Of a DNA stretch of 24,000 bases, positions 316-17,994 are shown piece by piece. The notes under the pieces are model-generated. The model saw nothing but the letters and a program-made list of their open reading frames with translations. It made no database searches and was not told the origin of the DNA. Where the stretch lies: positions 778-24,777 of the forward strand of contig DCGI01000083.1 in NCBI GenBank assembly GCA_002315475.1, in the 5' to 3' direction. The translations under genes and the position numbers were made by a program. Source of the DNA: Christensenella sp. UBA1782 (GTDB taxonomy: Bacteria > Bacillota > Clostridia > Christensenellales > DTU072). Positions within the stretch are counted from its first letter, which is position 1. Each line of letters starts with the position of its first letter.

Positions 316-1029
316 ATGCTTTCCGTCGAAGAAACCGCCGAACTTCTGGAAAAAGCTCAAAAGGGGGACGACGCCGCAAAATCCGCACTTTTGCAGAACA
401 ATCTCCCGTTAATAAAAAGTATCGTACGAAGATACAAAAACAAGCAAATCGAATATGACGACCTCTTGGAACTGGGAACACTCGGTTTTATCAAAGCGAT
501 GAACCACTACGACGCCTCGTTCGGCGTACGTTTTTCCACCTACGCCGTACCCATGATAGCGGGTGAAATAAAACGGTACATTCGAGATAACGGCGTCATC
601 AAAGTAAGCCGTTCTTTGAAAGCAAAAAATCTACTCATGCACAATTTCATGGAAGAATACCGCCAAAAAAACGGTAAAGAACCGAGTTTGCGGGAAATAG
701 CGGACTTCTTGAAGGTCGAGGAAGAAGAAGTCGTTTTTATCATGGACAGTGCCAAATATCCTATATCTATTTATGCGGAAAGCGACGAAGACGGGCTGAG
801 TCTTGCGGACAAACTGGCTTCCAAAGACAATCCAGACGACTATATCGACAAACTTGTCTTGAAGGAAATCATCGATAAATTCGATAAACGAGATAAAACC
901 ATTATTTTTCTGCGTTTTTATCGAGATAAAACACAAAGCGAAATTGCCGCCGTTTTGGGCGTTTCGCAAGTACAGGTCAGCCGATTGGAGGCAAAGATTC
1001 TGGCAAGAATTCGGCAAGAATTGGTATAA
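316..1029 (+). CDS. sigF: Sporulation sigma factor SigF (SpoIIAC)
   Basis: The 237-aa ORF has sigma-70 regions 2-4 (DDLLELGTLGFIKAMNHYD, STYAVPMIAGEIKRYIRDNGVIKVSRSLK, TQSEIAAVLGVSQVQVSRLE). It sits directly after spoIIAB and upstream of spoVA genes. Confidence 0.9.
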   Translation: MLSVEETAELLEKAQKGDDAAKSALLQNNLPLIKSIVRRYKNKQIEYDDLLELGTLGFIKAMNHYDASFGVRFSTYAVPMIAGEIKRYIRDNGVIKVSRSLKAKNLLMHNFMEEYRQKNGKEPSLREIADFLKVEEEEVVFIMDSAKYPISIYAESDEDGLSLADKLASKDNPDDYIDKLVLKEIIDKFDKRDKTIIFLRFYRDKTQSEIAAVLGVSQVQVSRLEAKILARIRQELV

Positions 1030-1053
1030 AGAAATACTCTGTGCGGAATACTA
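1024..1053 (+). promoter_or_regulatory. Candidate forespore (sigmaG/F-type) promoter for spoVAC-AD-AE
   Basis: GTATA (1024-1028, overlapping the sigF stop), an 18-nt spacer, then AATACTA (1047-1053). The textbook sigmaG consensus is GHATR-18-CATXHTA. spoVA is sigmaG-dependent in B. subtilis. Confidence 0.35.
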
Positions 1054-1139
1054 CAAAGCATGGAGTATTTTTATGAGAAAAGAAACGAAAAAAGAAGAAT
1101 GCAGAAATCCCTTCCCGTCCGTTCTCGTGGGAGGTAAAA

Positions 1140-1589
1140 ATGATTCTAAATAAAGAGGAACAAAAAGTTTATAAAAAAGAAATCAAGGACGTTGCACCGA
1201 AAACAAAGCATATTTCCACCCTTTTGCGTGCGTTTTTTACGGGAGGAACCATTTGTTGCATCGGGCAGGGCGTCAATCAAGTACTCGGTATCCTTCTTCC
1301 GAGTCTGACCGAAGAGGACAGGGGAGGGTATACGACTTTGTTGATGATTTTTTTTACGGGTATCTTAACCGCCTTCGGCGTCTACGACCATATCGGGAAT
1401 TTCGGGGGAGCGGGAAGTATCATACCGATTACCGGCTTTGCCAATTCTATCGTCAGTCAAGCGATGGAACACAAGCGAGAAGGGATTATTTTCGGAATTT
1501 GCAGCAATATGTTTGCCATAGCCGGCCCCGTTATCGTCATGGGAATCACCGCTTCGGTGGTCGTAGGCATCGTGTATTTGTTTTTGTGA
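1140..1589 (+). CDS. spoVAC: Stage V sporulation protein AC
   Basis: 149-aa polytopic membrane ORF (GGTICCIGQG..., IPITGFANSIV) with SD GGGAGG at 1128-1133. SpoVAD and SpoVAE follow it. Confidence 0.85.
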   Translation: MILNKEEQKVYKKEIKDVAPKTKHISTLLRAFFTGGTICCIGQGVNQVLGILLPSLTEEDRGGYTTLLMIFFTGILTAFGVYDHIGNFGGAGSIIPITGFANSIVSQAMEHKREGIIFGICSNMFAIAGPVIVMGITASVVVGIVYLFL

Positions 1590-1596
1590 GAAGGGT

Positions 1597-2598
1597 ATGA
1601 AGAATCAAACCGTTCTGTTTCGTTCTCCCGTTCCCGTTGCGGAAACGGCAACCATTGCCGGCCCCAAAGAAAAGGAAGGGCCTCTGCACGCTTATTTTCA
1701 TTATACGCTGGAAGACGACTTATTGAAGCAAGACAGCCACGAACACGCCGAAATACGTTTACACGTCGGGGTACTGAAACAACTCTTGAACCGAGCCAAA
1801 CTTTCTCCGCAGGAGATAGACTGCGCCTTTGCCGGTGATCTTTTGGACGAAATCATCGGCAGTAATTTTGCCATGCGAGAATTGGATATACCCTTTTTCG
1901 GCATTTATAACGCTTGTGCCACCTTTGGCGAAAGCTTGATTTTGGGTTCTTGCATGATCGAAGGCGGTTTTGCCGAAAGAGTAACCTGTTCGGTAACCAG
2001 CCACTTCGCTACGGCGGAACGGCAATACCGTTATCCGTTGGAACTTGGTTGTCAAAGAACCCCTCTGTCCCAATGGACGGTAACGGGTGCGGGTGCTACG
2101 CTTTTGGATAAAAACGCAACGAGCAAAATAAAAATAACGAGCGGAACTATCGGAAAAGTGGTAGATTACGGCATAAAAGACGCCAACGATATGGGTTGCG
2201 TCATGGCGCCGGCGGCACTGTCGACATTACGGACGCATTTACAAGATACGGGAAGAACCGTCGACTATTACGATAAGATTTTTACGGGTGACTTGGGGTA
2301 TTCCGGTAGCCTTTTACTGCAAAAGAAAGCGAGCGAAACGGGTATTATCCTTCACAATCACGAAGACTGCGGCAATTTGATTTATAACCGCATAGCACAA
2401 AACGTGGAATCGGGCGGAAGCGGTGCCTGTTGTTGCGGTTTGGTCTTTAACGGCTATATTTACGACCAATTACAAAAAGGACGACTGAAAAAAGTACTGT
2501 TGATGCCGACGGGTGCCTTGCTTTCCAAAACTTCTTCTTTACAAGGGGAATCCATACCTGCCATCTGTCACGCCGTATCCGTAGAGGTGATCGAATGA
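1597..2598 (+). CDS. spoVAD: Stage V sporulation protein AD (thiolase-like fold)
   Basis: 333-aa ORF with a typical SpoVAD N-terminus (FRSPVPVAETATIAGPKEKEGPL) and IYNACATFGES. It lies between spoVAC and spoVAE and its stop overlaps the spoVAE start (ATGA). Confidence 0.85.
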   Translation: MKNQTVLFRSPVPVAETATIAGPKEKEGPLHAYFHYTLEDDLLKQDSHEHAEIRLHVGVLKQLLNRAKLSPQEIDCAFAGDLLDEIIGSNFAMRELDIPFFGIYNACATFGESLILGSCMIEGGFAERVTCSVTSHFATAERQYRYPLELGCQRTPLSQWTVTGAGATLLDKNATSKIKITSGTIGKVVDYGIKDANDMGCVMAPAALSTLRTHLQDTGRTVDYYDKIFTGDLGYSGSLLLQKKASETGIILHNHEDCGNLIYNRIAQNVESGGSGACCCGLVFNGYIYDQLQKGRLKKVLLMPTGALLSKTSSLQGESIPAICHAVSVEVIE

Positions 2599-2969
2599 AC
2601 GTTTTTATTGACTATTTACTTGTTTTTGCCGTAGGCGGCGGTATCTGCGTACTCGGTCAGCTTTTCATCAATTATACAAAAATGACGTCGGCAAGAATCT
2701 TGGTGATTTTCTTGTTAATCGGTGTCGTTTTGGAAGCCTGCGGCGTTTTTGAATCGATCAAGGAAGTAGCGCAAGCGGGTATTACCGTTCCTATCACCGG
2801 CTTCGGCAGCAATCTTGCCAAAGGCGCCATCAAAGGTGCCCGAGAAAACGGGGTTCTGGGGGCAATCGTCGGCGGGACGAAGGCGGCGAGTGCGGGACTG
2901 GCCGGTGCGATTTTTATCGGCTTCCTTTCGGCATTGGTGGCAAAGCCGAAAAGTAAAGGCGTCAAATAA
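2595..2969 (+). CDS. spoVAE: Stage V sporulation protein AE (SpoVAEB-type)
   Basis: 124-aa membrane ORF carrying the same VPITGFGSNLA motif class as SpoVAC. SD GAGGTGAT lies upstream, and the start is translationally coupled to spoVAD. Confidence 0.8.
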   Translation: MNVFIDYLLVFAVGGGICVLGQLFINYTKMTSARILVIFLLIGVVLEACGVFESIKEVAQAGITVPITGFGSNLAKGAIKGARENGVLGAIVGGTKAASAGLAGAIFIGFLSALVAKPKSKGVK

Positions 2970-2988
2970 CGTTTTTTCGACCGAATTC

Positions 2989-3017
2989 TTGACAACGGAC
3001 GAAACAGAAAATATAAT
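2989..3017 (+). promoter_or_regulatory. Consensus sigmaA promoter immediately upstream of the M24 peptidase ATG
   Basis: TTGACA (2989-2994), exactly 17 nt, then TATAAT (3012-3017). The ATG at 3024 is only 6 nt past the -10 box. Confidence 0.6.
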
Positions 3018-3023
3018 AGAACC

Positions 3024-4040
3024 ATGCAAGAATTATTACGAAACCGAGATGCCGTTTTGGTTCAAAACCCGTCCAATCTTTTTTACTGCACTTCTTATAA
3101 AAACGCCGACGCCAAATTGCTGTTTTGGCAGGATAAACGATATTACTTTACCGATGCCCGCTATTTTGAAGAAGCCGCACAAATCCCCGACGTCCTTTTG
3201 CAAGATATAAAAGAGTTCCCGAACTTTCTCAAAGAACACCGTATCCGAGAAATGGGAACGGACGGCAGTATCACTTTGGAAGAATACGCATCCCTTCAAG
3301 AACAAGGCATAACGAAAGTAGACGACATACAAACTTATATTCATGCCAAACGGGCGAAAAAAACGCCGAAAGAATTGGAAAAAATCCAAAAAGCACAGGC
3401 AATAACCGACAAAACCTTTTCCGACCTATTACCTTTAATACGGGAGGGGATGACCGAAAAAGAATTGGACACCCTTTTGAAATGTACCCTGTATCAAAAC
3501 GGTGCCGACGAACTTGCTTTCGATCCTATCGTTGCTTTCGGGAAGAATTCTTCCAAACCGCACGCACACGCCGGACAAACGGTTTTACAAACCGGTATGA
3601 TGATTACTTTGGACTTCGGTGCAAAGACGGACGGCTATTGTTCCGACATGACAAGGACGGTCGCATTCGGAAAAATCGGAGAAGAAGAAAAAAAGGTTTA
3701 CGGGTGGGTTTTGGAAGCCCAACAACGAGCCCTCGACCTCGTGCATACGGGCATGACGGGAGAGGAATGTCACCGAATCGCCGTTGACACTTTCGCCCGG
3801 TACGGCGTACAATCGTTTTTTACCCATTCGTTAGGACACAGTTTAGGCATCGACATTCACGAAACGCCTTGTTTGTCGCCTCGTTGGAAGGAAAAAATCG
3901 AAGAAAACACCGTCAGCAGCGTGGAACCGGGACTGTATTTTCCCGAAAAATTCGGCGTTCGGATAGAAGATATTATTGTTTTTACAAAAAACGGTATAAT
4001 AAACTTGACAAAAAGCAAAAAAGAGTTGATAATAATATAA
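3024..4040 (+). CDS. M24-family Xaa-Pro aminopeptidase/dipeptidase (YqhT/PepP-like)
   Basis: 338-aa ORF with a creatinase-like N-domain and M24 metal-ligand motifs ([46 protein letters not shown]). It sits upstream of efp, as in Bacillus and Clostridium. Confidence 0.85.
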
Positions 4041-4074
4041 GATATTTTATTCAAAAGATTTGGAGGAAAAATTT

Positions 4075-4638
4075 ATGCCCTATATTACTGCTGGCGATTT
4101 TAGAAAAGGTATTACTTTCGAAATGGATAACACCGTTCAGGTTATCGTGGATTTCTTACACGTTAAACCCGGAAAAGGTGCCGCATTCGTCCGCGCCAAG
4201 ATTCGTAACGTTATGACCGGCGGGGTTATCGAAAGAACTTTCAACCCGAACGAAAAATTCGAAACCGCACTTATCGAAAGAAAGAAGATGACGTATAGCT
4301 ACAACGACGGCGACTTCTATTACTTCATGGACGAAGAAACCTACGAACAAGTTCCGCTCGGAGCCGAACTCGTCAAAGACGCTTTGAACTTCATCAAAGA
4401 AAACGACGTATGCGATATTGCTTTCTACAAAGGAAACGCCTTCTCTTGCGAACCGCAAAACTTCGTAGAACTCAAAGTCATCGAAGCCGATCCCGGAATC
4501 GCCGGTGCCACCGCACAACCCGGCACCAAGAACGCCACTTTGGAAACCGGCTACAAGATTCAAGTACCGCTCTTTGTAAACGAAGGCGACACCATCCGCG
4601 TCGATACCCGCGAAGGTATTTACATGTCCAGAGTATAA
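4075..4638 (+). CDS. efp: Translation elongation factor P
   Basis: The translation [19 protein letters not shown]...[21 protein letters not shown]... is classic EF-P. I chose ATG 4075 (GGAGG at 4062-4066, 8-nt spacing) over the TTG at 4060 given in the ORF track. Confidence 0.9.
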
Positions 4639-4668
4639 GTTTTACCACATTCAATAACATAAATACAA

Positions 4669-4703
4669 CACCGTAAGCATAAAAGTACTTACGGTGTTTT
4701 TTT
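4669..4703 (+). terminator. Rho-independent terminator after efp
   Basis: A perfect 9-bp stem, CACCGTAAG (4669-4677) with CTTACGGTG (4688-4696), a 10-nt loop, then T7 (4697-4703). Confidence 0.8.
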
Positions 4704-5525
4704 ATGGAAAAATTATTCGGTCAAGAGGTCTATGGCGCAATTCTGCAAAACTGTTCGGCAGAGGAACTTTGTGAAGTACGGCTACGCCTTTTTCAGAAAA
4801 TTCAAATAAAAACCGTTTCTGCGGTTTTTTTTCTCGATACCGTCTGCACCGAAGAATACTTGACGAAAGTCCTTTCGACAGCCGTAAACGGTTGTTTCTA
4901 CGCCTATGAACGGGAAATAGCGCAGGGATATATCGACTATGAAAAGGGGATTCGTATCGGAATCGTCGGAAGGGGGACTTTGAGCGAACGACAAATCGGT
5001 TATAAGAAAATCTATGCCCTTTGCATCAGAATTCCCCGAAAAAAACGTTCCGCCGTTGAAAAACTGGGTAATTTTTACACCCCTTTCCAAAATACCTTGA
5101 TTATTGCACCGCCGTACGGCGGCAAAACGACTTTATTGCGCGATATGCTTGCCGTCCTCTCCGAACGATACGACACGTTGGTTTTGGACGAAAGATGCGA
5201 GCTTGTCGGCAAAGATTTGGTTCTTGGGATAGGTACGAGAGGGGACGTATTGCAAGGAATCGAAAAAGAATACGTCTATCAAGGCATTATTCGCTCCATG
5301 AACCCCGAAATCATCGTTTGTGACGAACTGTTCTCCCAAACGGATTTTGAAGCAATTCGGCGTATTTCGGAGGCGGGAATCCGTTGTCTTGCCTCCTATC
5401 ATGCGGAGGAAGTACAAAAAGTCCCCGAATCGTTGCGGGAAATCTTCCCGTCCGTTATTACTTTATCGGCGCACCCCACACCGGGAACCATTCTTTCCTA
5501 CAAACGAGGAAGCCATGCTCGTTAA
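4704..5525 (+). CDS. spoIIIAA: Stage III sporulation protein AA (AAA+ ATPase)
   Basis: 273-aa ORF with EVRLRL near the N-terminus, Walker A (APPYGGKTTLLRD) and Walker B-like IIVCDEL. It is the first gene of an eight-gene spoIIIA series. Confidence 0.85.
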   Translation: MEKLFGQEVYGAILQNCSAEELCEVRLRLFQKIQIKTVSAVFFLDTVCTEEYLTKVLSTAVNGCFYAYEREIAQGYIDYEKGIRIGIVGRGTLSERQIGYKKIYALCIRIPRKKRSAVEKLGNFYTPFQNTLIIAPPYGGKTTLLRDMLAVLSERYDTLVLDERCELVGKDLVLGIGTRGDVLQGIEKEYVYQGIIRSMNPEIIVCDELFSQTDFEAIRRISEAGIRCLASYHAEEVQKVPESLREIFPSVITLSAHPTPGTILSYKRGSHAR

Positions 5526-5976
5526 ACTTGCGGGTGCCGTTTTCGTCGTCGGTTCCTTTGTGTTTCTCGGACTTGCCGTCCTGCAAAAATATCGGAACGC
5601 CGTCCGCTTTTGGGAAGACGTGCTTTCTTTTACGGTTTTATGCGAAAGTGAAATCTTTTATCGCAAAGAAGAATTTTATAAAATCATCGACAATTTTCGT
5701 CTCAGCGGCAGAAAGTACGCCGACATAATCGGAGATGTTTGCCAATACAATACAAAAAACAGGAATCTAACCGAAAAAGAAAACGAGTTTCTTCTCCGAT
5801 TTTCCGAAGAACTCTTAAAAATAGATACCGAAACACAAAAAAAATGGTTTCAGGAGAAAAAGCGAGAAAGCGAAGATAACCGAAAAAAAGCCAAAGAAGA
5901 GGAAGATAAAAAGGGGAAAACCATCCAAAAACTTCTTCCTTTTATCGGACTCGGCATTGTCATTTTTTTCATATAA
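5515..5976 (+). CDS. spoIIIAB: Stage III sporulation protein AB
   Basis: I chose the internal start ATG 5515 (SD GAGGAAG at 5505-5511), giving a 153-aa protein. It begins MLVKLAGAVFVVGSFVFLGL (TM helix) and ends with a second TM. It overlaps spoIIIAA by 11 nt. The longer track ORF from 5320 would run inside spoIIIAA. Confidence 0.75.
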   Translation: MLVKLAGAVFVVGSFVFLGLAVLQKYRNAVRFWEDVLSFTVLCESEIFYRKEEFYKIIDNFRLSGRKYADIIGDVCQYNTKNRNLTEKENEFLLRFSEELLKIDTETQKKWFQEKKRESEDNRKKAKEEEDKKGKTIQKLLPFIGLGIVIFFI

Positions 5977-5985
5977 GGAGAACGC

Positions 5986-6183
5986 ATGGGAGTTGGAATT
6001 CTTTTCAAAATCGCCGGAATCGGAATCGTAACGGCGATCATCAACATCATTTTGGAAAAAAGCGACAAAAAAGAAATAGCTACCTTCGTGACGCTTGCGG
6101 GACTGATTTTGGTTCTGGTTTTGGTTCTCGAAATGATCAGCGGATTATTCGGCTCGTTAAAGACCATTTTTTCTTTGGAATAA
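5986..6183 (+). CDS. spoIIIAC: Stage III sporulation protein AC
   Basis: 65-aa two-TM ORF (MGVGILFKIAGIGIVTAIINIILEKSDKKE...) with SD AAGGAGA. Position and size match SpoIIIAC. Confidence 0.85.
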   Translation: MGVGILFKIAGIGIVTAIINIILEKSDKKEIATFVTLAGLILVLVLVLEMISGLFGSLKTIFSLE

Positions 6184-6185
6184 AC

Positions 6186-6572
6186 ATGAATACGTTGATA
6201 AAAATCATCGGAATCGCCTTCATCGGCACCATACTGTATCAAGTGCTGAAAAAAACGCAAACCGACGTTGCGCCGCTCACCCTTTTGGCTACGGGTTGTC
6301 TGTTGCTTTTTATTCTTGCCGAGCCTCTCACCGAAGCAGTAAACGTTTTTCGAGGTCTTTCCGAAAAATCGGGGTTAAACAACGGACTTTTTTCGTCGAT
6401 ACTCCGCATTATCGGCATCGGATATCTGACGGAATATTCTTCTTCGATTTGCGAAGACGGTGGGTGTGTATCTCTATCGAAAAAAATAGAATTGGCAGGG
6501 AAAACGGTTATTTTGCTGACCGCACTACCCATTTTCAACGGCATCGGAGAACTTCTTTCCTCGTTATTATGA
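6186..6572 (+). CDS. spoIIIAD: Stage III sporulation protein AD
   Basis: 128-aa membrane ORF that starts 2 nt after spoIIIAC (LRIIGIGYLTEYSSSICEDGG...). Its stop overlaps the spoIIIAE start. Confidence 0.8.
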   Translation: MNTLIKIIGIAFIGTILYQVLKKTQTDVAPLTLLATGCLLLFILAEPLTEAVNVFRGLSEKSGLNNGLFSSILRIIGIGYLTEYSSSICEDGGCVSLSKKIELAGKTVILLTALPIFNGIGELLSSLL

Positions 6573-7711
6573 AAATATTACTTCTTTTGCTGCTTCCTTT
6601 CTTAATACCGACATCCTGCGCCTATGCCGAAGACGACATAAACGACGGCGTTTCCGAAATCTTGGACGGCATTGATTTTTCCGACTATAACGATTTTTTG
6701 CAAGACCTACGAGAGGATTCTTCCTCGACGCAAACGATAGAAGAAATCATCCGAGAAATACTCAACGGAAAATCCGACTGGGATGCCGCATATTTTTTGG
6801 AAAAAGCTCTTTCCGTCCTGACGGGCAATATCGGAGAATACCTGACGGACGGCATCATGATTCTTATCGTTTGCGTCCTGCTGAACGTCTTAAAAAACAT
6901 AAGCTCGGGGTTATCGAGGCAAGCCACCGAAAAAATCGTTTATGCGGCTTGTTACGGAGTGGTTTTGACCATTGTTTTGCACGTTTGCAAAACGACGATA
7001 CAAGAATGCAGTCAAACCGTAACGAATTTGGAAAAATTCACCGCAGTCGTTTTTCCGCCCCTTTTTACCGTTCTGAGCGGATTAGGCGGAACGATATCGG
7101 TTTCCGTCTATCAACCCGTCGTATCCGTCTTTTCGGGCATGGGTATCCATTTGATTGAAAAAATCGTATTTCCGCTTTTTTACGTTCATTTTGCCATGAG
7201 CTTACTCGGCAACCTCTCACCGGAAATCAAATTTCGTTCTTTCTTAAAAACCATTAAATCGGTCGTATCTTGGCTTCTCGGTATCTTTTTCGGTCTGTTT
7301 TTAACCATAACCACCGCAAAAGGGATAACGGGTTCGGGCATAGATTCGTTGGCACTGCGCGGAGCAAAATACGCCTTGTCCGGTTACGTCCCCATCGTGG
7401 GAAGTTATTTGAAAGACGGATTTGATATCGTTACGGCGAGTTGTATCGTCATAAAAAACGCTCTCGGATTCGGTTCTGTCGGCATCTTACTGCTTTTTAC
7501 GCTCTCACCGATTCTAAAAATAGCCATCGTACGGTTCACCTTAAAAATAACGTCGTCTTTTTGCGAATCTTTAGACGGAGGCATTTCGCAATCTCTTTCC
7601 GACGTAGCGGATAGTTTGCAAATACTCCTTGCCGCCGTTCTTTGTTGCATTTTTTCGTTATTTGCCTTACTGTTGTTGATACTTTGTTCCTGTAATTTGG
7701 GCGTGCTATGA
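6569..7711 (+). CDS. spoIIIAE: Stage III sporulation protein AE
   Basis: I chose ATG 6569 (ATGA overlap with spoIIIAD), giving 380 aa. The product starts with a signal peptide (MKILLLLLLPFLIPTSCAYAEDD) followed by a multi-TM body. The upstream part of the 471-aa track ORF is an out-of-frame read through spoIIIAD. Confidence 0.8.
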   Translation: MKILLLLLLPFLIPTSCAYAEDDINDGVSEILDGIDFSDYNDFLQDLREDSSSTQTIEEIIREILNGKSDWDAAYFLEKALSVLTGNIGEYLTDGIMILIVCVLLNVLKNISSGLSRQATEKIVYAACYGVVLTIVLHVCKTTIQECSQTVTNLEKFTAVVFPPLFTVLSGLGGTISVSVYQPVVSVFSGMGIHLIEKIVFPLFYVHFAMSLLGNLSPEIKFRSFLKTIKSVVSWLLGIFFGLFLTITTAKGITGSGIDSLALRGAKYALSGYVPIVGSYLKDGFDIVTASCIVIKNALGFGSVGILLLFTLSPILKIAIVRFTLKITSSFCESLDGGISQSLSDVADSLQILLAAVLCCIFSLFALLLLILCSCNLGVL

Positions 7712-8151
7712 AAGCGTGGATACTCGGCATCGTTTCTCTTTCGCTGTTTGTTGCCGTCTTGGAACTTTTTTGTGCCGAAGGCAAAACAAAAAAACTGATT
7801 TCGGGTATTCTGAGAATCGTCTTTGTATTCGTACTGCTTCAACCCGTTTTTTCTTTGGTAAAGGGAGATGAAATCGAGCTTTTTCGGGAAGAAACGTTTT
7901 CAAAGGAAGAGTATACCGAAAACAATATCGTTACCGAGACCGTTTTGAAACAAAAATTAAAAGAGAAAGGAATCGATTGTTCGGTAAAAATCATCACGAA
8001 AAACGGGGAAATCGAATCTATCGATATTTATCCGGAAAATCCAATCATAAATCCCGAAGAGGGGAATATATATATTTACAGCGAAGAGGTTCTTGCGGTC
8101 ATTCGTTCCTGTTTCGATATCGAATTGGAGAAAATACGGGTTTATGGGTAA
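7708..8151 (+). CDS. spoIIIAF: Stage III sporulation protein AF
   Basis: 147-aa ORF with two N-terminal TM helices (MKAWILGIVSLSLFVAVLELFCAEGK...) and a soluble C-domain. ATGA coupling to spoIIIAE. Confidence 0.8.
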   Translation: MKAWILGIVSLSLFVAVLELFCAEGKTKKLISGILRIVFVFVLLQPVFSLVKGDEIELFREETFSKEEYTENNIVTETVLKQKLKEKGIDCSVKIITKNGEIESIDIYPENPIINPEEGNIYIYSEEVLAVIRSCFDIELEKIRVYG

Positions 8152-8506
8152 TTTTTCATGGAAAAGTCTTTGGCTGAAAATCCAAAAATCGAAATACTTA
8201 CAAATCGGTTTGATTTTATTTTCGGTCGGCGTATTACTATTGGTCTTTACCGCTGAAACCGAAAACAAATCCACCGAAACGACGGTGGACTGCGAGCAAC
8301 AACTTTCCGACATTCTGGAAAAAATCGAAGGAGTCGGAAAAACCGAAATCATGATTTACCGAGAAGACGACGCCATACGAGGGGTTATCGTGCTATGTGA
8401 AGGGGGAAACGACCCCACCACGAAAATCATCGTTCGACAAGCGGTATCGACAACCTTACAAATCGACAAAGAAAAAATCAGAATATATGCAAAAAAAACG
8501 GAATAA
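8144..8506 (+). CDS. spoIIIAG: Stage III sporulation protein AG
   Basis: I chose ATG 8144, giving 120 aa (MGNFSWKSLWLKIQKSKYLQIGLILFSVGVLLLVF... then ...GVIVLCEGG..., a ring-building motif-like C-terminus). It overlaps spoIIIAF by 8 nt. Confidence 0.7.
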   Translation: MGNFSWKSLWLKIQKSKYLQIGLILFSVGVLLLVFTAETENKSTETTVDCEQQLSDILEKIEGVGKTEIMIYREDDAIRGVIVLCEGGNDPTTKIIVRQAVSTTLQIDKEKIRIYAKKTE

Positions 8507-8528
8507 GCTTTAGTAAGGAGGCAATTTT

Positions 8529-9011
8529 ATGAAAGCAAACAAGAAAAAAATCATCGTACTGGTATCTTTGGTCGTTCTGTTGGCGGGTGTAGCCTGTCTA
8601 AACTACTTTTTGACCGTATACAAAGGCAAAAGTGGTTCCGCTACCGACGAAACCGGCACAACACAAACCTTTTTCAGTACCTACCGAGAGGACAGAACGG
8701 CTACGCGCAGTCAAGAAATCTTGTATCTCGAAGAAATGATGGCGAGCACGACCGCCGACGAGCAGACGATAGCCGACGCCAAAAAAATGTACTTGGATTT
8801 AGTCGCGGCGATGGAAACGGAAACCACGTTGGAAGGGTTGATTAAGGCGTACGGATTCGACGATTGTATCGTAACCATCAGCGATAATAACGTCAACGTC
8901 GTCATCAAAGACAGCGATTTGACCGTAGAAGAAACGGCGCAGATACTCAGTATCATCACTTCGGAAACCGATTACTGTGCGGCGGACGTCATCGTGATTC
9001 CTTATGTGTAA
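8529..9011 (+). CDS. spoIIIAH: Stage III sporulation protein AH
   Basis: 160-aa ORF with SD AAGGAGG, a single N-terminal TM (KKIIVLVSLVVLLAGVACLNYF) and an extracytoplasmic domain. It is the last gene of the series. Confidence 0.75.
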   Translation: MKANKKKIIVLVSLVVLLAGVACLNYFLTVYKGKSGSATDETGTTQTFFSTYREDRTATRSQEILYLEEMMASTTADEQTIADAKKMYLDLVAAMETETTLEGLIKAYGFDDCIVTISDNNVNVVIKDSDLTVEETAQILSIITSETDYCAADVIVIPYV

Positions 9012-10711: not shown

Positions 10712-11888
10712 AGACTATCTCACCGTCGAAGAACTCAATTATTACATTCATCACGTTTTCCAAGAAGAAGATTTACTGCATAACGTCCCCGTCGTAGGCG
10801 AAGTGTCCGGTTGCACCGTTGTCAACGGCACCTGTTATTTCGTCTTAAAAGACGCCAAAGCACAAATAAAAATCGTTTTTTATAACTGTCCTTTGGAAAA
10901 TGCACCCAAAAACGGCGACCAAGTTTTGGTGCGGGGCAGCGTGGACTATTATTCCAAAGCGGGACAGCTCAACGTAAAAGCCTATCAAATTACCCCTTTC
11001 GGAAAAGGAATCCTATACGAACAATTAGAGAAATTACGAAAAAAGTTGGAATCGGAAGGGTTGTTTCGGGACGACCATAAAAAAGATATACCCGTTTGCC
11101 CGAAACGGGTAGCCGTCGTCACCAGTACGCAGGGAGCGGCGGTACAAGACTTTTTGACGACGTCTCTGAAAAAGAATACGGCGACCGATATTTCGGTCAT
11201 TGACGTACGCGTGCAAGGGGAATACTGCGTTTCGGATATCGTTACGGCACTGACGAACGCCGACGATTACGGATACGACGTGATCGTTATCGCAAGAGGG
11301 GGCGGCTCCTTCGAAGATTTGTACTGTTTTAACGACGAACGACTCGTTCGGACGATTTACGATATGAAAACACCGATTATTTCGGCGATCGGACATGAAA
11401 CGGACTACACTTTATGCGACTATGTGGCGGATTATCGTGCCATCACGCCGACCGCCGCCGCCGAAAAAGTTGCGTTCGATACCGGCATTATTAAAAACGA
11501 AATTTTGGACTTAATCGAAGAAATTGCCGACCTCGTCAACGATACGTTGGAATCCAAAATCGAACGTATCGTCCGATGCTGCGAAAGCATACGAAGTCAA
11601 GCCAACCTTCTGATTTCGGAACAGTACGGCACGATTTTGAACCTTACCGAGTTGTTAAAAATCTACACCAACGCAAAACTGGAAAAAGAAACGAGTAAAT
11701 TCGGCTATCTTACCACCCGTTTAGAAGACTTAAACCCCTTAAAAATAATAAAAAACGGATATTTTCGCATGGTACGAAACGGAGAAACCGTTTTCGACAC
11801 CGAACCGTTACAAACGGGTGACGAAGTAGAACTTATCGGCAGTCAAGAAAAAATAATAGCAAAAATTCTTGCAAAGGAGACCTTATGA
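10701..11888 (+). CDS. xseA: Exodeoxyribonuclease VII large subunit
   Basis: 395-aa ORF with an OB-fold N-terminus (LTVEELNYYIHHVF...VVGEVSG) and a catalytic core (VAVVTSTQGAAVQDF, IARGGGSFEDL, SAIGHETDYTL). xseB follows it. Confidence 0.9.
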   Translation: MPTKDYLTVEELNYYIHHVFQEEDLLHNVPVVGEVSGCTVVNGTCYFVLKDAKAQIKIVFYNCPLENAPKNGDQVLVRGSVDYYSKAGQLNVKAYQITPFGKGILYEQLEKLRKKLESEGLFRDDHKKDIPVCPKRVAVVTSTQGAAVQDFLTTSLKKNTATDISVIDVRVQGEYCVSDIVTALTNADDYGYDVIVIARGGGSFEDLYCFNDERLVRTIYDMKTPIISAIGHETDYTLCDYVADYRAITPTAAAEKVAFDTGIIKNEILDLIEEIADLVNDTLESKIERIVRCCESIRSQANLLISEQYGTILNLTELLKIYTNAKLEKETSKFGYLTTRLEDLNPLKIIKNGYFRMVRNGETVFDTEPLQTGDEVELIGSQEKIIAKILAKETL

Positions 11889-12112
11889 ATTACGAAGAAA
11901 CCATGAAAAAATTGGAAGCCATCGTTGCCAAACTCAAAGAAGACAAAATCGGCATCGAAGAAAGTTTGGAACTCTATTCGGAAGGTATCCGACTCGCCAA
12001 AGAAGGACTTGCCTCCCTAAACGGGTTCAAAGGAAAAATAGAATTACTCAATAAGGATTTATCCAAATTGGAACCGAAAACGGAAGACGAAACGGACGAG
12101 GATGAAGAATAA
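11885..12112 (+). CDS. xseB: Exodeoxyribonuclease VII small subunit
   Basis: 75-aa ORF (YEETMKKLEAIVAKLKEDKIGIEESLELYSEGIRLAK) with SD AAGGAGA and ATGA coupling to xseA. Confidence 0.85.
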   Translation: MNYEETMKKLEAIVAKLKEDKIGIEESLELYSEGIRLAKEGLASLNGFKGKIELLNKDLSKLEPKTEDETDEDEE

Positions 12113-12162
12113 ACTCAAAAAAAGATTGTTTTTTTGAAAAATAAAATAGTTTTCTAAAAGAA

Positions 12163-12194
12163 TTGACATTTTTTTTGAAATCCGTTATTATAAT
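12163..12194 (+). promoter_or_regulatory. Near-consensus sigmaA promoter driving the large ncRNA
   Basis: TTGACA (12163-12168), 17 nt, then TATTAT (12186-12191). An overlapping TATAAT lies at 12189-12194. This predicts a 5' end at about 12198-12201. Confidence 0.6.
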
Positions 12195-12200
12195 AATATC

Positions 12201-12758
12201 GGTGGCACAGTATTCTAGTCAGGTACAAAACAGTCAGGACGGGGATAAAATACCGTTAAAGGGCACATCGTTGAAGTTTCTTGTGCTGGCCTTGATTGCC
12301 CAAATCGGGGCTGGTGCTGGGAGTTAAGGTTTTTGGGCATACCGTAACGGCATACGGAACATGACCCAATTATCGTGGAGACCCGAAACGGCAAAAGTAC
12401 TCAGTCTTTTGCTGTTCGGGATTAAACCTGCAATGCGGTAACTAATAGCTGTGTGCAGTGTAGCCTGCCTTGAGTGAAGCAAGCGAATGAAGGGTTCGGT
12501 TTTTTTATCGTCGGCCGGCGAAGAAAAATACTTTGCCTTCTGAAACTTTCCTTTGCAAAAGAGGATAAACTGTTCAGGGCCTGCTAAGGAAATCTTCTAG
12601 ACTGATTAAGTTAAGGATTATAGTGTGTTCTCAGTGGCGATTCGGTGCGTATTTTACGGTTGTTTCTTAAAAGGAAACTGCTTCTACGGCGACGAGAAGT
12701 GAGACAGCGGGAAACCCTACCGAACCTATGACGCAAGGTTTACTTAACTTATGCCACC
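12201..12758 (+). ncRNA. ole: Large structured non-coding RNA, most likely OLE (ornate, large, extremophilic) RNA
   Basis: The 671-nt gap has no ORF of 60 aa or more on either strand, and it has a dedicated promoter. Several helices are readable directly: 12382-12420, 12489-12540, 12662-12678, 12681-12699 (with a GCGA loop) and 12709-12717. A long-range helix pairs GGTGGCA (12201-12207) with TGCCACC (12752-12758). The position between xseB and a 4-TM protein plus tlyA matches the published OLE/oapA neighbourhood. I did not check it against the covariance model. Confidence 0.65.
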
Positions 12759-12783
12759 TTATCCATAAAGTAAAGGTGCAAAA

Positions 12784-13377
12784 ATGGCAAAAAAAGAGGA
12801 AAATTCCTCACACAAAGAAAAAAAATCCAAAAAGCTGTCGGCAGGAACGATTTGGACGATAAAAATCACGATTATTACGTTGGTTCTTGCGTTTGCGGTC
12901 AGCTTCGTTACCGAAATTGCCTCCACCAAATCCAATATTATCGTATCCGTTTTATTGTTGATATTTTTGATAGCCATCGCCATTTTATTCGATGCCGTCG
13001 GCGTCGCCGCCACAAGTTGCGACCTGCCCCCTCTGTTATCCATGGCTTCCCGAAAGGTAAAGGGTGCCGGTATGGCGGTAAAGCTCGTAAAAAATGCCGG
13101 AAAAGTATCCAATATCTGTAATGACGTCATCGGAGACATGGCGGGCATCATCAGCGGTACCTGCGGTGCCGCCATTATTATCAAAATTCTCACCTATAAC
13201 GATTCTCTTTCGGAGTATTCTTTATTGCTCGGTATCGTCATGAGTTCGATTATCTCGGCTATTACCGTCGGAGGAAAGGCATTTTTCAAAGGGATTGCCA
13301 TCAAAAATTCCAAAGAAATGATTCTTTTTGCGGGAAGAGTCCTATCTGTCTTTTCCGCAAAAAAGAGGAAAAAATGA
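12784..13377 (+). CDS. oapA: OLE-associated membrane protein A (OapA)-like, 4 predicted TM helices
   Basis: 197-aa ORF with SD AAGGTG at 12773-12778 and Lys-rich N- and C-termini. Four hydrophobic segments are present. FDAVGVAA and NDVIGDMAGIISG give a DxxxD pair (D114/D118, nt 13123-13137). It sits immediately 3' of the ncRNA and is coupled to tlyA by ATGA. Confidence 0.6.
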   Translation: MAKKEENSSHKEKKSKKLSAGTIWTIKITIITLVLAFAVSFVTEIASTKSNIIVSVLLLIFLIAIAILFDAVGVAATSCDLPPLLSMASRKVKGAGMAVKLVKNAGKVSNICNDVIGDMAGIISGTCGAAIIIKILTYNDSLSEYSLLLGIVMSSIISAITVGGKAFFKGIAIKNSKEMILFAGRVLSVFSAKKRKK

Positions 13378-14090
13378 GATTGGATGTTTTTTTAACGGAA
13401 AACGGTTTTTCTTGCAGTCGTACGCGAGCCAAAAATCTTATCGAATTGGGTTCGGTTACGGTAAACGGAAAAATCGCAGACAAGCCGTCCGCCGAAGTCA
13501 ACGCCGAGGACGAGGTAAAGATTCTTTCCGATTACGATGCGAGTTTGGGCGGAATCAAGCTTCGGGGAGCCATAGAAAAAACAAAGGTTTCGGTTTCCGG
13601 ATGTTGTTGTTTGGATATCGGTTCTTCCAACGGCGGTTTTTGCGACGTCCTTCTTTCCTTCGGTGCGAAAAAGGTTATTGCTTGCGACGTTGCGGAATGT
13701 GCTCTGCCCGATAGATTGAAAACCGACGCAAGGATTCTTATCAAAGACAACACCAACGCTCGCTTTTTGATGCCCGAAGATTTACCTTACCAACCCGACT
13801 TTATTACGGTGGACGTCAGTTTTATTTCCCTTTCTTTTATTCTGCCGACCGTTTATCGTTGCTTAAAACAAGGCGGAAAAGCTCTTACTTTGGTAAAACC
13901 GCAATTTGAATGTGGCAAGCAGGCACTATCCAAAAAAGGGGTTATTCTCCATAAAAAAGACGAAGAAAGGGCGGTTGCGTCTATGCGAAAAACAGCCGAA
14001 GAGTTAGGTTTTACCGTCCTCGACTCTTTTCCCGCACCCCATCCCTTCGCAAACAAAAATCAAGAATATTTTTTATTTTTATGCAAATAA
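13374..14090 (+). CDS. tlyA: TlyA-family rRNA 2'-O-methyltransferase (S4 domain + FtsJ-like)
   Basis: 238-aa ORF (MRLDVFLTENGFSCSRTRAKNLIELGSVTVNGK..., LDIGSSNGGFCDVLL, DVSFISL, LVKPQFE). Confidence 0.85.
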   Translation: MRLDVFLTENGFSCSRTRAKNLIELGSVTVNGKIADKPSAEVNAEDEVKILSDYDASLGGIKLRGAIEKTKVSVSGCCCLDIGSSNGGFCDVLLSFGAKKVIACDVAECALPDRLKTDARILIKDNTNARFLMPEDLPYQPDFITVDVSFISLSFILPTVYRCLKQGGKALTLVKPQFECGKQALSKKGVILHKKDEERAVASMRKTAEELGFTVLDSFPAPHPFANKNQEYFLFLCK

Positions 14091-16346: not shown

Positions 16347-17342
16347 ATGAAAAAATTTCTTTACAAATCCCTACTTGTTTTTTCCGCACTTTTCTTAATC
16401 GGTGCGGTTTTTTTACCGAAAAATCAACAAGCTTATGCGTTGGAAAGCGTCTATTTAGGCGGGATACCCATCGGCATTAAAGCGAAATCGGAAGATTTCG
16501 TGGTAACCGAACTCGTTGACGTCATCACGAAAGAGGGTTCTTTTTCGCCCGCTCAAAAAGCAGGTATCCAAAAAGGGGATATTCTTTTATCGATAAACCG
16601 ACAAAAAGTCGAAACCGTACAAGACGTACAAAACATCGTCCGACACGCACAAACGTTGGAAATCGAGATAAACCGTCGAGGCGACAAACTGACTTTTTGG
16701 GTAACGCCTGCCTTAGACGCCGTAAAGAACGAATACAAAATCGGACTTTTTTTGCGAAACGACATAGGCGGCATCGGTACGTTGACCTATATCACCAAAG
16801 ACGGAAAATTCGGAGCGCTCGGGCATAAAATAGGGGATTCTTTCGGGTACAGTACCCTTTATCAAAACGGAGAAATCTACGATTGTTTTATATACGGCTA
16901 TAAAAAAGCCGAAAACAAGAAGGCGGGAGAACTCTGCGGAAGGATAGGGAGTAACCGACTCGGAACCTTTTATTCCAACCAAGAAACGGGCATAAACGGG
17001 TATTTTACCGAAAAATCGGATTTTACCGAAGTCCCTCTCGGGAGGAGAGAAGACGTCCGGTCGGGAAAAGCACAGATTTATACCACCATCGACGGAAACA
17101 GTCCGAAACTCTACGAAATCGAAATTCTGAAAACCGCCAAACAGGAGCAAGACCAACCCAAAGGCATGTTGATACGCGTCACCGATGCGGCGTTACTGCG
17201 TACGACGGGCGGTATCCTGCAAGGCATGAGCGGTTCTCCCGTTTTGCAGGACGGAAAATTGATAGGTGCCGTTACGCACGTCCTCACCGACAACTCCTCG
17301 CTCGGATACGGTGTCTATATCGATTGGATGATAAATAAGTAA
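16347..17342 (+). CDS. spoIVB: SpoIVB signalling serine peptidase (S55, PDZ domain)
   Basis: 331-aa ORF with an N-terminal TM, a PDZ domain (AGIQKGDILLSINRQKV), a His motif (FGALGHKI) and the catalytic Ser motif GMSGSPV. It follows recN, as in Bacillus and Clostridium. Confidence 0.9.
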   Translation: MKKFLYKSLLVFSALFLIGAVFLPKNQQAYALESVYLGGIPIGIKAKSEDFVVTELVDVITKEGSFSPAQKAGIQKGDILLSINRQKVETVQDVQNIVRHAQTLEIEINRRGDKLTFWVTPALDAVKNEYKIGLFLRNDIGGIGTLTYITKDGKFGALGHKIGDSFGYSTLYQNGEIYDCFIYGYKKAENKKAGELCGRIGSNRLGTFYSNQETGINGYFTEKSDFTEVPLGRREDVRSGKAQIYTTIDGNSPKLYEIEILKTAKQEQDQPKGMLIRVTDAALLRTTGGILQGMSGSPVLQDGKLIGAVTHVLTDNSSLGYGVYIDWMINK

Positions 17343-17373: not shown

Positions 17374-17994
17374 ATGTTTTCTAAGGCTAAACAAAACTTT
17401 TCTTATTATAAAAACGAACTTTTATGTTCTTACCGAAAAAACAAGCAATTCTTTTTCCTTGCCTTCGTATGTATGGGAATCGGATTGCTTTTTTCGTTAA
17501 AAGGGATAAAAGAAAGTGTGGAAGAAGGCTCGTTTCTTTCCCTTGCCGCAGCGATAGAAACGGAAAATTTTTCGGTTTTTACCTTGATAGTTTCGGTCTT
17601 GTTGATTCCTCTTCTTTTTTCGGCTATTATCTATCTTTTGTCCTGCAATCGCTACTTACTTTTTTTATCGTATATCGGCATTATCGTACTATCCGAAAAA
17701 TTCTTTCGCTATACGATTTGCTGTATACTTGCCGATTTATGGAAAGGGCTTATCAGTACTTTTCTCTACGCTCTGCCCGTTTTTCTGTGGATTATGGTCT
17801 GTTGCGTATTCTTTTTATGTAAACTTTGGGAAAGTATTGCCTATCCTTGCCCCCAAAAATTCTTATATATCGTACCGTATCGCTGTTATTTTCGCTCTTT
17901 GAAAAAAGTCATCCTTCGGCATTTTTTGTGGATGTTTCTTCCCGTTTTTCTGTATTCCGTCCTTATCGTTATTTTGTTTTTTCTAATATTTTAG
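17374..17994 (+). CDS. Uncharacterised polytopic, Cys-rich membrane protein (topology loosely like SpoIIM)
   Basis: 206-aa ORF with about 5 hydrophobic segments and 11 Cys (TICCIL, MVCCVFFLC, YPCPQ). I recognise no motif. There is no SD, and TAGAAT (17363-17368) lies 5 nt upstream of the ATG. Confidence 0.5.
   Translation: MFSKAKQNFSYYKNELLCSYRKNKQFFFLAFVCMGIGLLFSLKGIKESVEEGSFLSLAAAIETENFSVFTLIVSVLLIPLLFSAIIYLLSCNRYLLFLSYIGIIVLSEKFFRYTICCILADLWKGLISTFLYALPVFLWIMVCCVFFLCKLWESIAYPCPQKFLYIVPYRCYFRSLKKVILRHFLWMFLPVFLYSVLIVILFFLIF

Follow-up and report, generated by a model that had tools for sequence, protein, structure and literature searches.

An OLE RNA and OapA locus with a truncated P13 element in Christensenella sp. 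UBA1782

Introduction

OLE RNAs form a well-studied family, of which over 2,800 representatives are known, and the class, its partner protein OapA, its gene neighbourhood and variants without P13 have already been described. Here an OLE locus is analysed in a 24,000-nt stretch of Christensenella sp. UBA1782 (the window), where a 671-nt gap between xseB and oapA contains an OLE RNA on the forward strand (12186-12773). The gap RNA is a genuine and ordinary member of the family, and its notable trait is the loss of the P13 docking site for the protein OapB. With a probability of roughly 0.93, the locus is read as the core of an OLE ribonucleoprotein (RNP).

In Halalkalibacterium halodurans, the high-affinity OapB site consists of the P13 GNRA tetraloop plus one bulged nucleotide, together with P12.2, and P14.1 is a weak secondary site (PMC7936274); OapA binding has been placed "near P2" (PMC12265935). 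The oapA gene is stated to occur in ole-containing organisms only (PMC9723947). The Clostridium acetobutylicum OLE RNA is 577 nt long (PMC12286853), and the C. acetobutylicum and C. botulinum RNAs are known as dimers from cryo-electron microscopy (PMC12286853, PMC12265935). Natural variants are also on record. Variant 1, found mostly in the TANB77 clade (PMC11332333), is a short RNA defined by short P7, P8 and P9; variant 2 (RF39-type) has neither P7 nor P8.

The window locus belongs to the same covariance-model family as that of H. halodurans, lies in the same nusB...recN block, and has an oapA gene encoding the DxxxD motif directly 3' of the RNA (D114/D118 here, D100/D104 there). P1-P15 are kept save for a small hairpin preceding P12 and the distal half of P13, and so are the CUAG palindromes, the k-turn segment, the four-way junction and the GCGA loop of P14.1. 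The host differs from H. halodurans in being an uncultured, spore-forming Clostridia-type bacterium known from metagenomes alone. With the C. acetobutylicum and C. botulinum RNAs the window RNA shares a clostridial origin and a similar size; their dimer-contact elements, the A-rich P4 loop and the P5.1 loop, are conserved when compared by sequence alone, whereas domain 2 is reduced in the window.

Results

Identity of the gap RNA

OLE is the sole Rfam family matched in a scan of all 24 kb. Its covariance model (RF01071; gathering score 50 bits) aligns to 12186-12773 (+) over model positions 1-616 with 429.9 bits and an E-value of 2.5e-123, and its P1-to-P1 structural core spans 12201-12758. 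An OLE RNA/OapA locus had been proposed in a preliminary description made from the letters alone, and the full-model match bears this out. Essentially all of the highly conserved OLE nucleotides are present in the Rfam alignment. The minimum free energy (MFE) of 12198-12762 (+) is -188.6 kcal/mol, compared with -162.3 +/- 6.9 kcal/mol for dinucleotide shuffles (z = -3.8), and in this fold the closing helix reappears together with the 3' multi-helix domain; the reverse strand of the OLE region folds with z = -2.8.

For comparison, one genome per species was scanned for the invariant 19-nt OLE segment AAAGGGCACATCGNTGAAG, giving at least 120 loci, and the 109 with enough flanking sequence were aligned with the window by MAFFT (alignment A1, 110 rows). 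Three of them, L043 (Streptomyces), L081 (Phycisphaerales) and L097 (Acidimicrobiales), are chance matches to AAAGGGCACATCGNTGAAG outside Bacillota and not OLE; they are left out of the 107-locus counts and still contribute 3 of the 110 rows to the helix pair counts. Two other loci align as genuine OLE despite non-Bacillota labels, L122 (titled Pseudomonas sp. ISL-84) and L100 (a metagenome-assembled genome (MAG) of Succinivibrio sp.), the latter followed by an OapA-like gene. These labels likely reflect contamination, mis-binning or transfer; the literature notes 24 such hits.

Helices and domain architecture

Mapped onto the window, a published-style structure (P1, P2, P3/P3.1, P12, P12.1, P12.2, P13, P14, P14.1, P15) is paired in 80.8% of cells over the 110 rows, compared with 65.4% in shuffles and 36-47% when the structure is slid, and double changes occur at 59 of its 73 pairs in A1. 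Helix names are those implied by statements in the text of PMC9723947, PMC7936274 and PMC12265935; the text of the last assigns P1, P2 and P10-P15 to domain 2. All elements below lie on the forward strand. Of six helices read directly from the letters in the preliminary description, five (P1, P7, the inner P9 helices, P14.1 and P15) are supported by covariation in the 107 listed loci. The sixth, a GTTTCT/GGAAAC hairpin at 12662-12678, is paired in 40% of cells and falls away, its bases belonging to P14 and to the internal loop UUAAAAGGAAACU.

The long-range closing helix suggested earlier corresponds to P1, in which 12201-12207 (GGUGGCA) pairs with 12752-12758 (UGCCACC). It is backed by covariation in alignment-free counts: at the position of window C12206-G12753, U-A is found 45 times, C-G 17 times and U-G 11 times, and the flanking pairs alternate between G-C and A-U. 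On the MAFFT columns P1 is just 47.6% paired, because a gap block interrupts its 3' strand and the window is displaced by one column. P1 has 7 bp in the window; the median over 80 OLE RNAs is 9 bp, and H. halodurans has 9-12 bp. The adjacent helix, to which the name P2 is given by inference, pairs 12208-12218 (CAGU-AUU-CUAG, with the palindromic CUAG inside) with CUAGACUG at 12597-12604; its sequence is almost invariant and 98.4% of cells are paired.

Domain 1 (12220-12583) is delimited by the Rfam alignment and by helix support. P3/P3.1 (12220-12234 with 12569-12583) encloses the rest of the domain, namely the P4 A-loop hairpin (12238-12257), the k-turn segment AAAGGGCACAUCGUUGAAG (12258-12276), the P5/P5.1 and P6 regions, P7 (12382-12420), P8 (12429-12456) and the P9 arm (~12465-12563). 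All pairs of P7 show double changes, and 74-75% of its cells are paired. The inner helix of the P9 arm at 12489-12540 is 78-96% paired, and both it and the CGUC/GGCG stem inside it (12509-12520) have compensatory changes. All domain-1 segments are of typical length, and the segments AUCGUUGAAGUU and CUGGGAGUUAAGG, which would form the k-turn between J4a/5 and J5/6 that is the OapC site of OLE RNAs, agree with the consensus except at one base, A to U at 12271.

The 3' part of domain 2 (12605-12752) is built from P12, P12.1 and P12.2 around the four-way junction. P12 (12605-12615/12743-12752), P12.1 (12624-12628/12731-12735) and P12.2 (12641-12646/12719-12724) are 94.9%, 97.8% and 98.6% paired, respectively, each with compensatory changes. 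P14 (12659-12666/12701-12708) is 95.6% paired, with double changes at 7 of 7 pairs, and is separated by the conserved internal loop UUAAAAGGAAACU (12667-12679) from P14.1 (12680-12700), a hairpin supported by pair counts that has a bulged A12686 and a GCGA tetraloop (12689-12692). Judged from PMC7936274, the GNRA hairpin at 12681-12699 of the preliminary description is this P14.1 and not P13, where OapB mainly binds. The P15 mini-hairpin, GGGAAACCC(U) at 12709-12718, has two conserved pairs; one P15 pair alternates between G-C (90) and A-U (18). The GGG-AAA-CCC helix proposed at 12709-12717 therefore stands for two pairs, since the third is window-specific. A register pairing G12709 with U12718 was rejected, as it has no double changes, unlike the 12709-12717 register.

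An AGTCAGG direct repeat that had also been pointed out is present, but it is found in none of the 106 other OLE RNAs aligned; one close relative, L124, has it. By the author's estimate about 0.7 nearby 7-mer repeats of this kind are expected by chance, and on the sequence comparison the repeat is treated as probably incidental.

OapA

The gene 3' of the RNA, oapA (12784-13377, +), starts 25 nt after the end of P1 on the same strand. A Shine-Dalgarno-like AAAGGUG, as read from the sequence, lies at 12772-12778 (+), 14 nt past P1 and 5 nt 5' of the ATG. The product has the features noted for it earlier: 197 residues with four hydrophobic helices, Lys-rich termini and the motif NDVIGDMAG, which contains D114 and D118 (DxxxD codons 13123-13137). 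Lys and Arg together account for 7 of the first 20 residues, 6 residues in 85-112 and 5 of the last 12.

With the window protein as query, tblastn finds a same-strand homologue just 3' of OLE in 98 of the 100 eligible listed loci. D114, G117 and D118 are invariant in 88/88 OLE-linked proteins and in 58/58 close homologues. Against OapA from 87 other OLE loci, to which the window protein is 30-43% identical, D70, D114, G117, D118, G125, K165 and K169 are invariant. The preliminary description rightly called the Asp pair critical: OapA PM1 of H. halodurans is the D100A/D104A mutant (PMC9723947), which is dominant-negative (PMC11332333, PMC9723947). Judged by sequence, the 197-aa protein is an OapA orthologue, as had been proposed. 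It departs from most family members, H. halodurans OapA included, in residues 79-85 (13018-13038), where C79, L81, L84 and L85 (C..L..LL) replace the widely conserved A, E, F and H (A..E..FH) found in 73 of 88 OLE-linked OapA; C79, P83 and L84 are invariant within the window's OapA clade.

An AlphaFold2 model of OapA (mean pLDDT 80.3) has seven helices, of which four are long and hydrophobic (20-49, 52-78, 105-138 and 144-174) and agree with the hydropathy peaks. The four best PDB matches of the model in Foldseek are all CNNM/CorB/CorC transmembrane domains, including 7m1t, 7m1u and 7cfg (probability 0.96-1.0, TM-score about 0.45); 7M1U is also the top match reported for H. halodurans OapA (PMC11332333). 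The model thus predicts a CNNM-like transmembrane fold, as published for OapA (PMC11332333). Pfam gives sub-threshold matches only, to CNNM (23.8 bits; cut-off 28.4) and more weakly to DUF6773; no NCBIfam model is matched, and a PDB sequence search returns nothing meaningful. A large protein collection holds 2854 OapA homologues, many of them tagged CNNM. The transmembrane fold is shared with the CNNM Mg2+ transporters MpfA, CorB and CorC, but window OapA has no CBS or CorC/HlyC domain by Pfam, has four transmembrane segments rather than three, and carries DxxxD (PMC11332333), the motif that separates OapA from CNNM domains (PMC11332333).

A dedicated promoter

The A/T-rich 88-nt spacer between xseB and P1 (12113-12200) holds a sigma-A type promoter at 12163-12191 (+), with a -35 box TTGACA (12163-12168), a 17-nt spacer and a -10 box TATTAT (12186-12191), matching the consensus at 11 of 12 positions. 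This near-consensus promoter was part of the preliminary description, and its position is conserved: in 7/7 clade members the two boxes lie at the homologous distance from P1, with ispA ending just 5' in six. Among 103 listed OLE loci, 79% have a promoter match of at least 9/12 in the 55 nt upstream of P1, compared with 7% of control windows placed another 150-360 nt upstream; at a threshold of at least 10/12 the figures are 53% and 1%. The enrichment of 79% over 7% indicates that a dedicated promoter is the norm for the OLE family. By these sequence comparisons the promoter at 12163-12191 is more than a chance match, and transcription is predicted to start at about 12198-12201, just before P1. 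No terminator-like site is found on the forward strand between the OLE RNA and the oapA coding sequence, as described before, and ole and oapA would be co-transcribed.

Loss of the P13 tip and of a small hairpin

Although the RNA had been called unusually compact, its P1-to-P1 core of 554 nt, compared with a median of 588, falls near the 11th percentile of 101 listed; it is short, not exceptional. The shortening falls in domain 2. The small hairpin of Rfam model positions 423-435 is missing between 12604 and 12605, that is, between CUAGACUG and P12, and is thus gone relative to H. halodurans; the CUAGACUG-to-P12 interval of the window is the shortest among 107 listed. This hairpin, probably P11, is likewise missing in seven examined relatives and is therefore a clade trait.

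P13 is truncated to 12648-12658 (+; CGUA-UUU-UACG), a helix of 4 bp with a UUU loop. The Rfam alignment places a 10-nt deletion here. The truncated P13 has neither the GNRA tetraloop nor the single-nucleotide bulge needed by OapB in H. halodurans, and it measures 13 nt between anchors, compared with 23 nt in 82 of 107 listed OLE RNAs. P14.1 retains a "bulge, 2 bp, GNRA" layout (A12686, C-G/G-C, GCGA). The P13 tip is different in every member of the window's subclade: UUU in the window, a bulge-less GUAA in L133, AAUAGU in L124, ACAAAAG in L132 and, in L135, UCAAAA. Farther from the window in the clade, L125, L134 and L126 have the canonical bulge plus GUAA or GCAA. The variety within the subclade suggests, at the level of sequence, relaxed constraint on the OapB site. 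An assembly artefact as the source of the P13 deletion, and of the missing ispA described below, was considered and rejected, since the 671 nt of 12113-12783 are present letter for letter in three independent assemblies. The contig is carried by JGI 3300001598, SRR1221442 and SRR5323906.

Variant 1 resembles the window RNA in being short, in having a promoter immediately 5' of a short P1 and in lacking the OapB-site nucleotides at the tip of P13 (PMC11332333), so a missing P13 site is compatible with membership in the OLE family. However, the P7, P8 and P9 segments of the window (39, 28 and 83 nt; segment names inferred) are of typical length (medians 45, 30 and 84 nt), which rejects a TANB77-type variant 1 assignment. 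In domain 1 the RNA is therefore of full length, and its likeness to the variant is confined to P13. Variant 2 was rejected as well, as both the P7 and P8 hairpins are present.

Collinear relatives with oapA and no nearby OLE

Two OapA homologues, P0073 and P0119, are 57% and 59% identical to window OapA and are encoded at the equivalent site of genomes that are collinear with the window over 20 kb. The OLE-less genomes are recorded at ENA under ERZ4561663 (NODE_7), ERZ16268083 and ERZ16268185. The distance from ispA to oapA in OLE-less relatives is 74 nt (L127 3927-4000) and 66 nt (L128 3935-4000). In L129, L130 and L131 (20.6 kb each), a scan with Rfam of the 10 kb to each side of oapA gives no OLE, and the ispA-oapA gap of L129, the one gap searched at E <= 10, yields nothing OLE-like. 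DxxxD is intact in the OapA of the OLE-less relatives. By protein identity (RecN 73%, XseA 64% and TlyA 71%), the nearest relative of OLE-less L129 is L125, which does bear OLE, and L130 is roughly equidistant from all other clade members. These placements suggest that OLE was lost within the clade, possibly repeatedly.

Gene neighbourhood

The 671-nt gap lies between xseB (11885-12112) and the oapA coding sequence, and the longest open reading frame (ORF) wholly within it has 59 codons, in agreement with the earlier statement that no ORF of 60 aa or more is present. A JGI annotation places a 41-aa gene inside the OLE RNA (L001 1863-1988, equal to window 12202-12327); this call is almost certainly spurious.

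The gene block named in the preliminary description is found in the order nusB, folD, xseA and xseB 5' of ole, and oapA, tlyA, argR and recN 3' of it. The tlyA gene, encoding an rRNA 2'-O-methyltransferase (13374-14090, +), overlaps the oapA stop codon by an ATGA (13374-13377), through which its translation is, from the sequence arrangement, predicted to be coupled to that of oapA. Unlike in H. halodurans, no dxs stands between oapA and tlyA and no ispA lies upstream of the RNA. Every fetched relative carries ispA, a polyprenyl synthase gene, between xseB and ole, and ispA is likewise present there in all 59 other listed OLE loci with xseA upstream.

The nusB...recN block is flanked by the spoIIIAA-AH operon and spoIVB. 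More widely, ole sits among sporulation genes (316-9011; 16347-17342), including those for a SigF-like sigma factor, spoVAC/AD/AEB, spoIIIAA-AH and spoIVB, a setting that fits the published correlation between OLE occurrence and sporulation proteins (PMC11332333). OLE hosts belong to Bacillota and are typically anaerobes or extremophiles and frequently spore-formers; homologues carry Clostridia/Clostridiales MAG labels. Neither Pfam nor NCBIfam matches a 206-aa ORF (17374-17994) that lies between spoIVB and the gene for a D-Ala-D-Ala carboxypeptidase; unannotated ORFs of 202-209 aa, matched by position and size alone, lie at the equivalent position in L129 (14859-15467) and L130 (14660-15289).

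Discussion

The sigma-A promoter at 12163-12191 would drive a transcript that begins within a few bases of P1, comprises the ~560-nt OLE RNA and, with no terminator in between, continues into oapA and tlyA. The RNA is predicted to adopt a two-domain fold, in which domain 1 (P3-P9) has the A-rich P4 loop, the k-turn segment and the P9 arm, and domain 2 (P1, P2, P10-P15) has the P12.2/P13/P14/P15 four-way junction. By analogy with H. halodurans and with clostridial work, OapA would bind the RNA near the CUAG palindromes and tether it at the membrane, and the particle may aid adaptation to low temperature, short-chain alcohols and excess Mg2+, as in H. halodurans. The particle of the window lineage would be a reduced one. 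P13 is cut to a stub, and OapB therefore probably no longer docks there; OapB, if still present, would have only the P14.1 module left for use.

Several observations weigh against reading the locus as the core of a working OLE RNP. Neither oapB (ybzG, KOW/SBB) nor oapC (ybxF, L7Ae family) lies within the 24-kb window, the CNNM match has weak E-values in Foldseek (3.5e-3 to 0.55), and, with the primary OapB site gone and collinear relatives lacking a nearby OLE, the RNA could be under relaxed constraint. The lineage might then be giving up the RNP, the window RNA being a non-functional or partly functional relic that is still transcribed ahead of oapA. Such decay would account for the truncated P13, the lost pre-P12 hairpin, the P13 tip that differs in each subclade member and the collinear L127-L131, which have oapA and no nearby OLE. 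It is nevertheless unlikely. The RNA scores 430 bits and keeps essentially all highly conserved nucleotides, domain 1 has normal lengths, the near-consensus promoter is conserved, and three samples have the same sequence letter for letter; moreover, the window's own P1 has compensatory C-G/A-U changes, and the losses are limited to peripheral elements known to vary naturally (PMC11332333).

Less probable still is that the structured region mainly controls expression of oapA and tlyA as a cis-acting leader instead of serving as a trans-acting RNP component. The lack of a terminator between the RNA and oapA and a Shine-Dalgarno sequence 14 nt past P1 are what a leader would have, but P1 closes 25 nt before the start codon, the Shine-Dalgarno sequence is not sequestered in the MFE fold, and the window RNA matches, over the full model, a family whose H. 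halodurans member binds OapA, OapB and OapC and is needed together with them (PMC9723947, PMC7936274), and whose RNAs alone form ordered dimers (PMC12286853). That small proteins, one or several, are encoded in the gap is very improbable: short ORFs of 25-59 aa do occur on both strands, and one was called as a 41-aa gene, but the conservation is that of paired helices with compensatory changes and not of codons, and the covariance model fully explains the region. The reading as an OLE RNP core is thus preferred.

It is conceivable, though less likely than not, that the OLE RNP is being dismantled step by step in this clade. The pre-P12 hairpin is missing in all members examined, the canonical OapB-docking P13 tip is lost in the window's subclade, most severely in the window itself, and the whole RNA would have been deleted in two or more lineages (L129; L130/L131), where an intact oapA with invariant DxxxD stays in place.

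Among bacterial non-coding RNAs, OLE ranks with the largest, and natural variants of it reveal which parts it can do without. Retention of domain 1 and OapA together with loss of the OapB site and the small hairpin argues that the latter are unneeded for the core function in some hosts. Beyond the dispensability of these two elements, the window itself adds little. The relatives with oapA and no nearby OLE are a better lead, as they provide a natural test of OapA alone. If OLE is truly absent there, the published claim that oapA occurs only with ole would be contradicted, and OapA would have an RNA-independent function to which OLE is a dispensable accessory.

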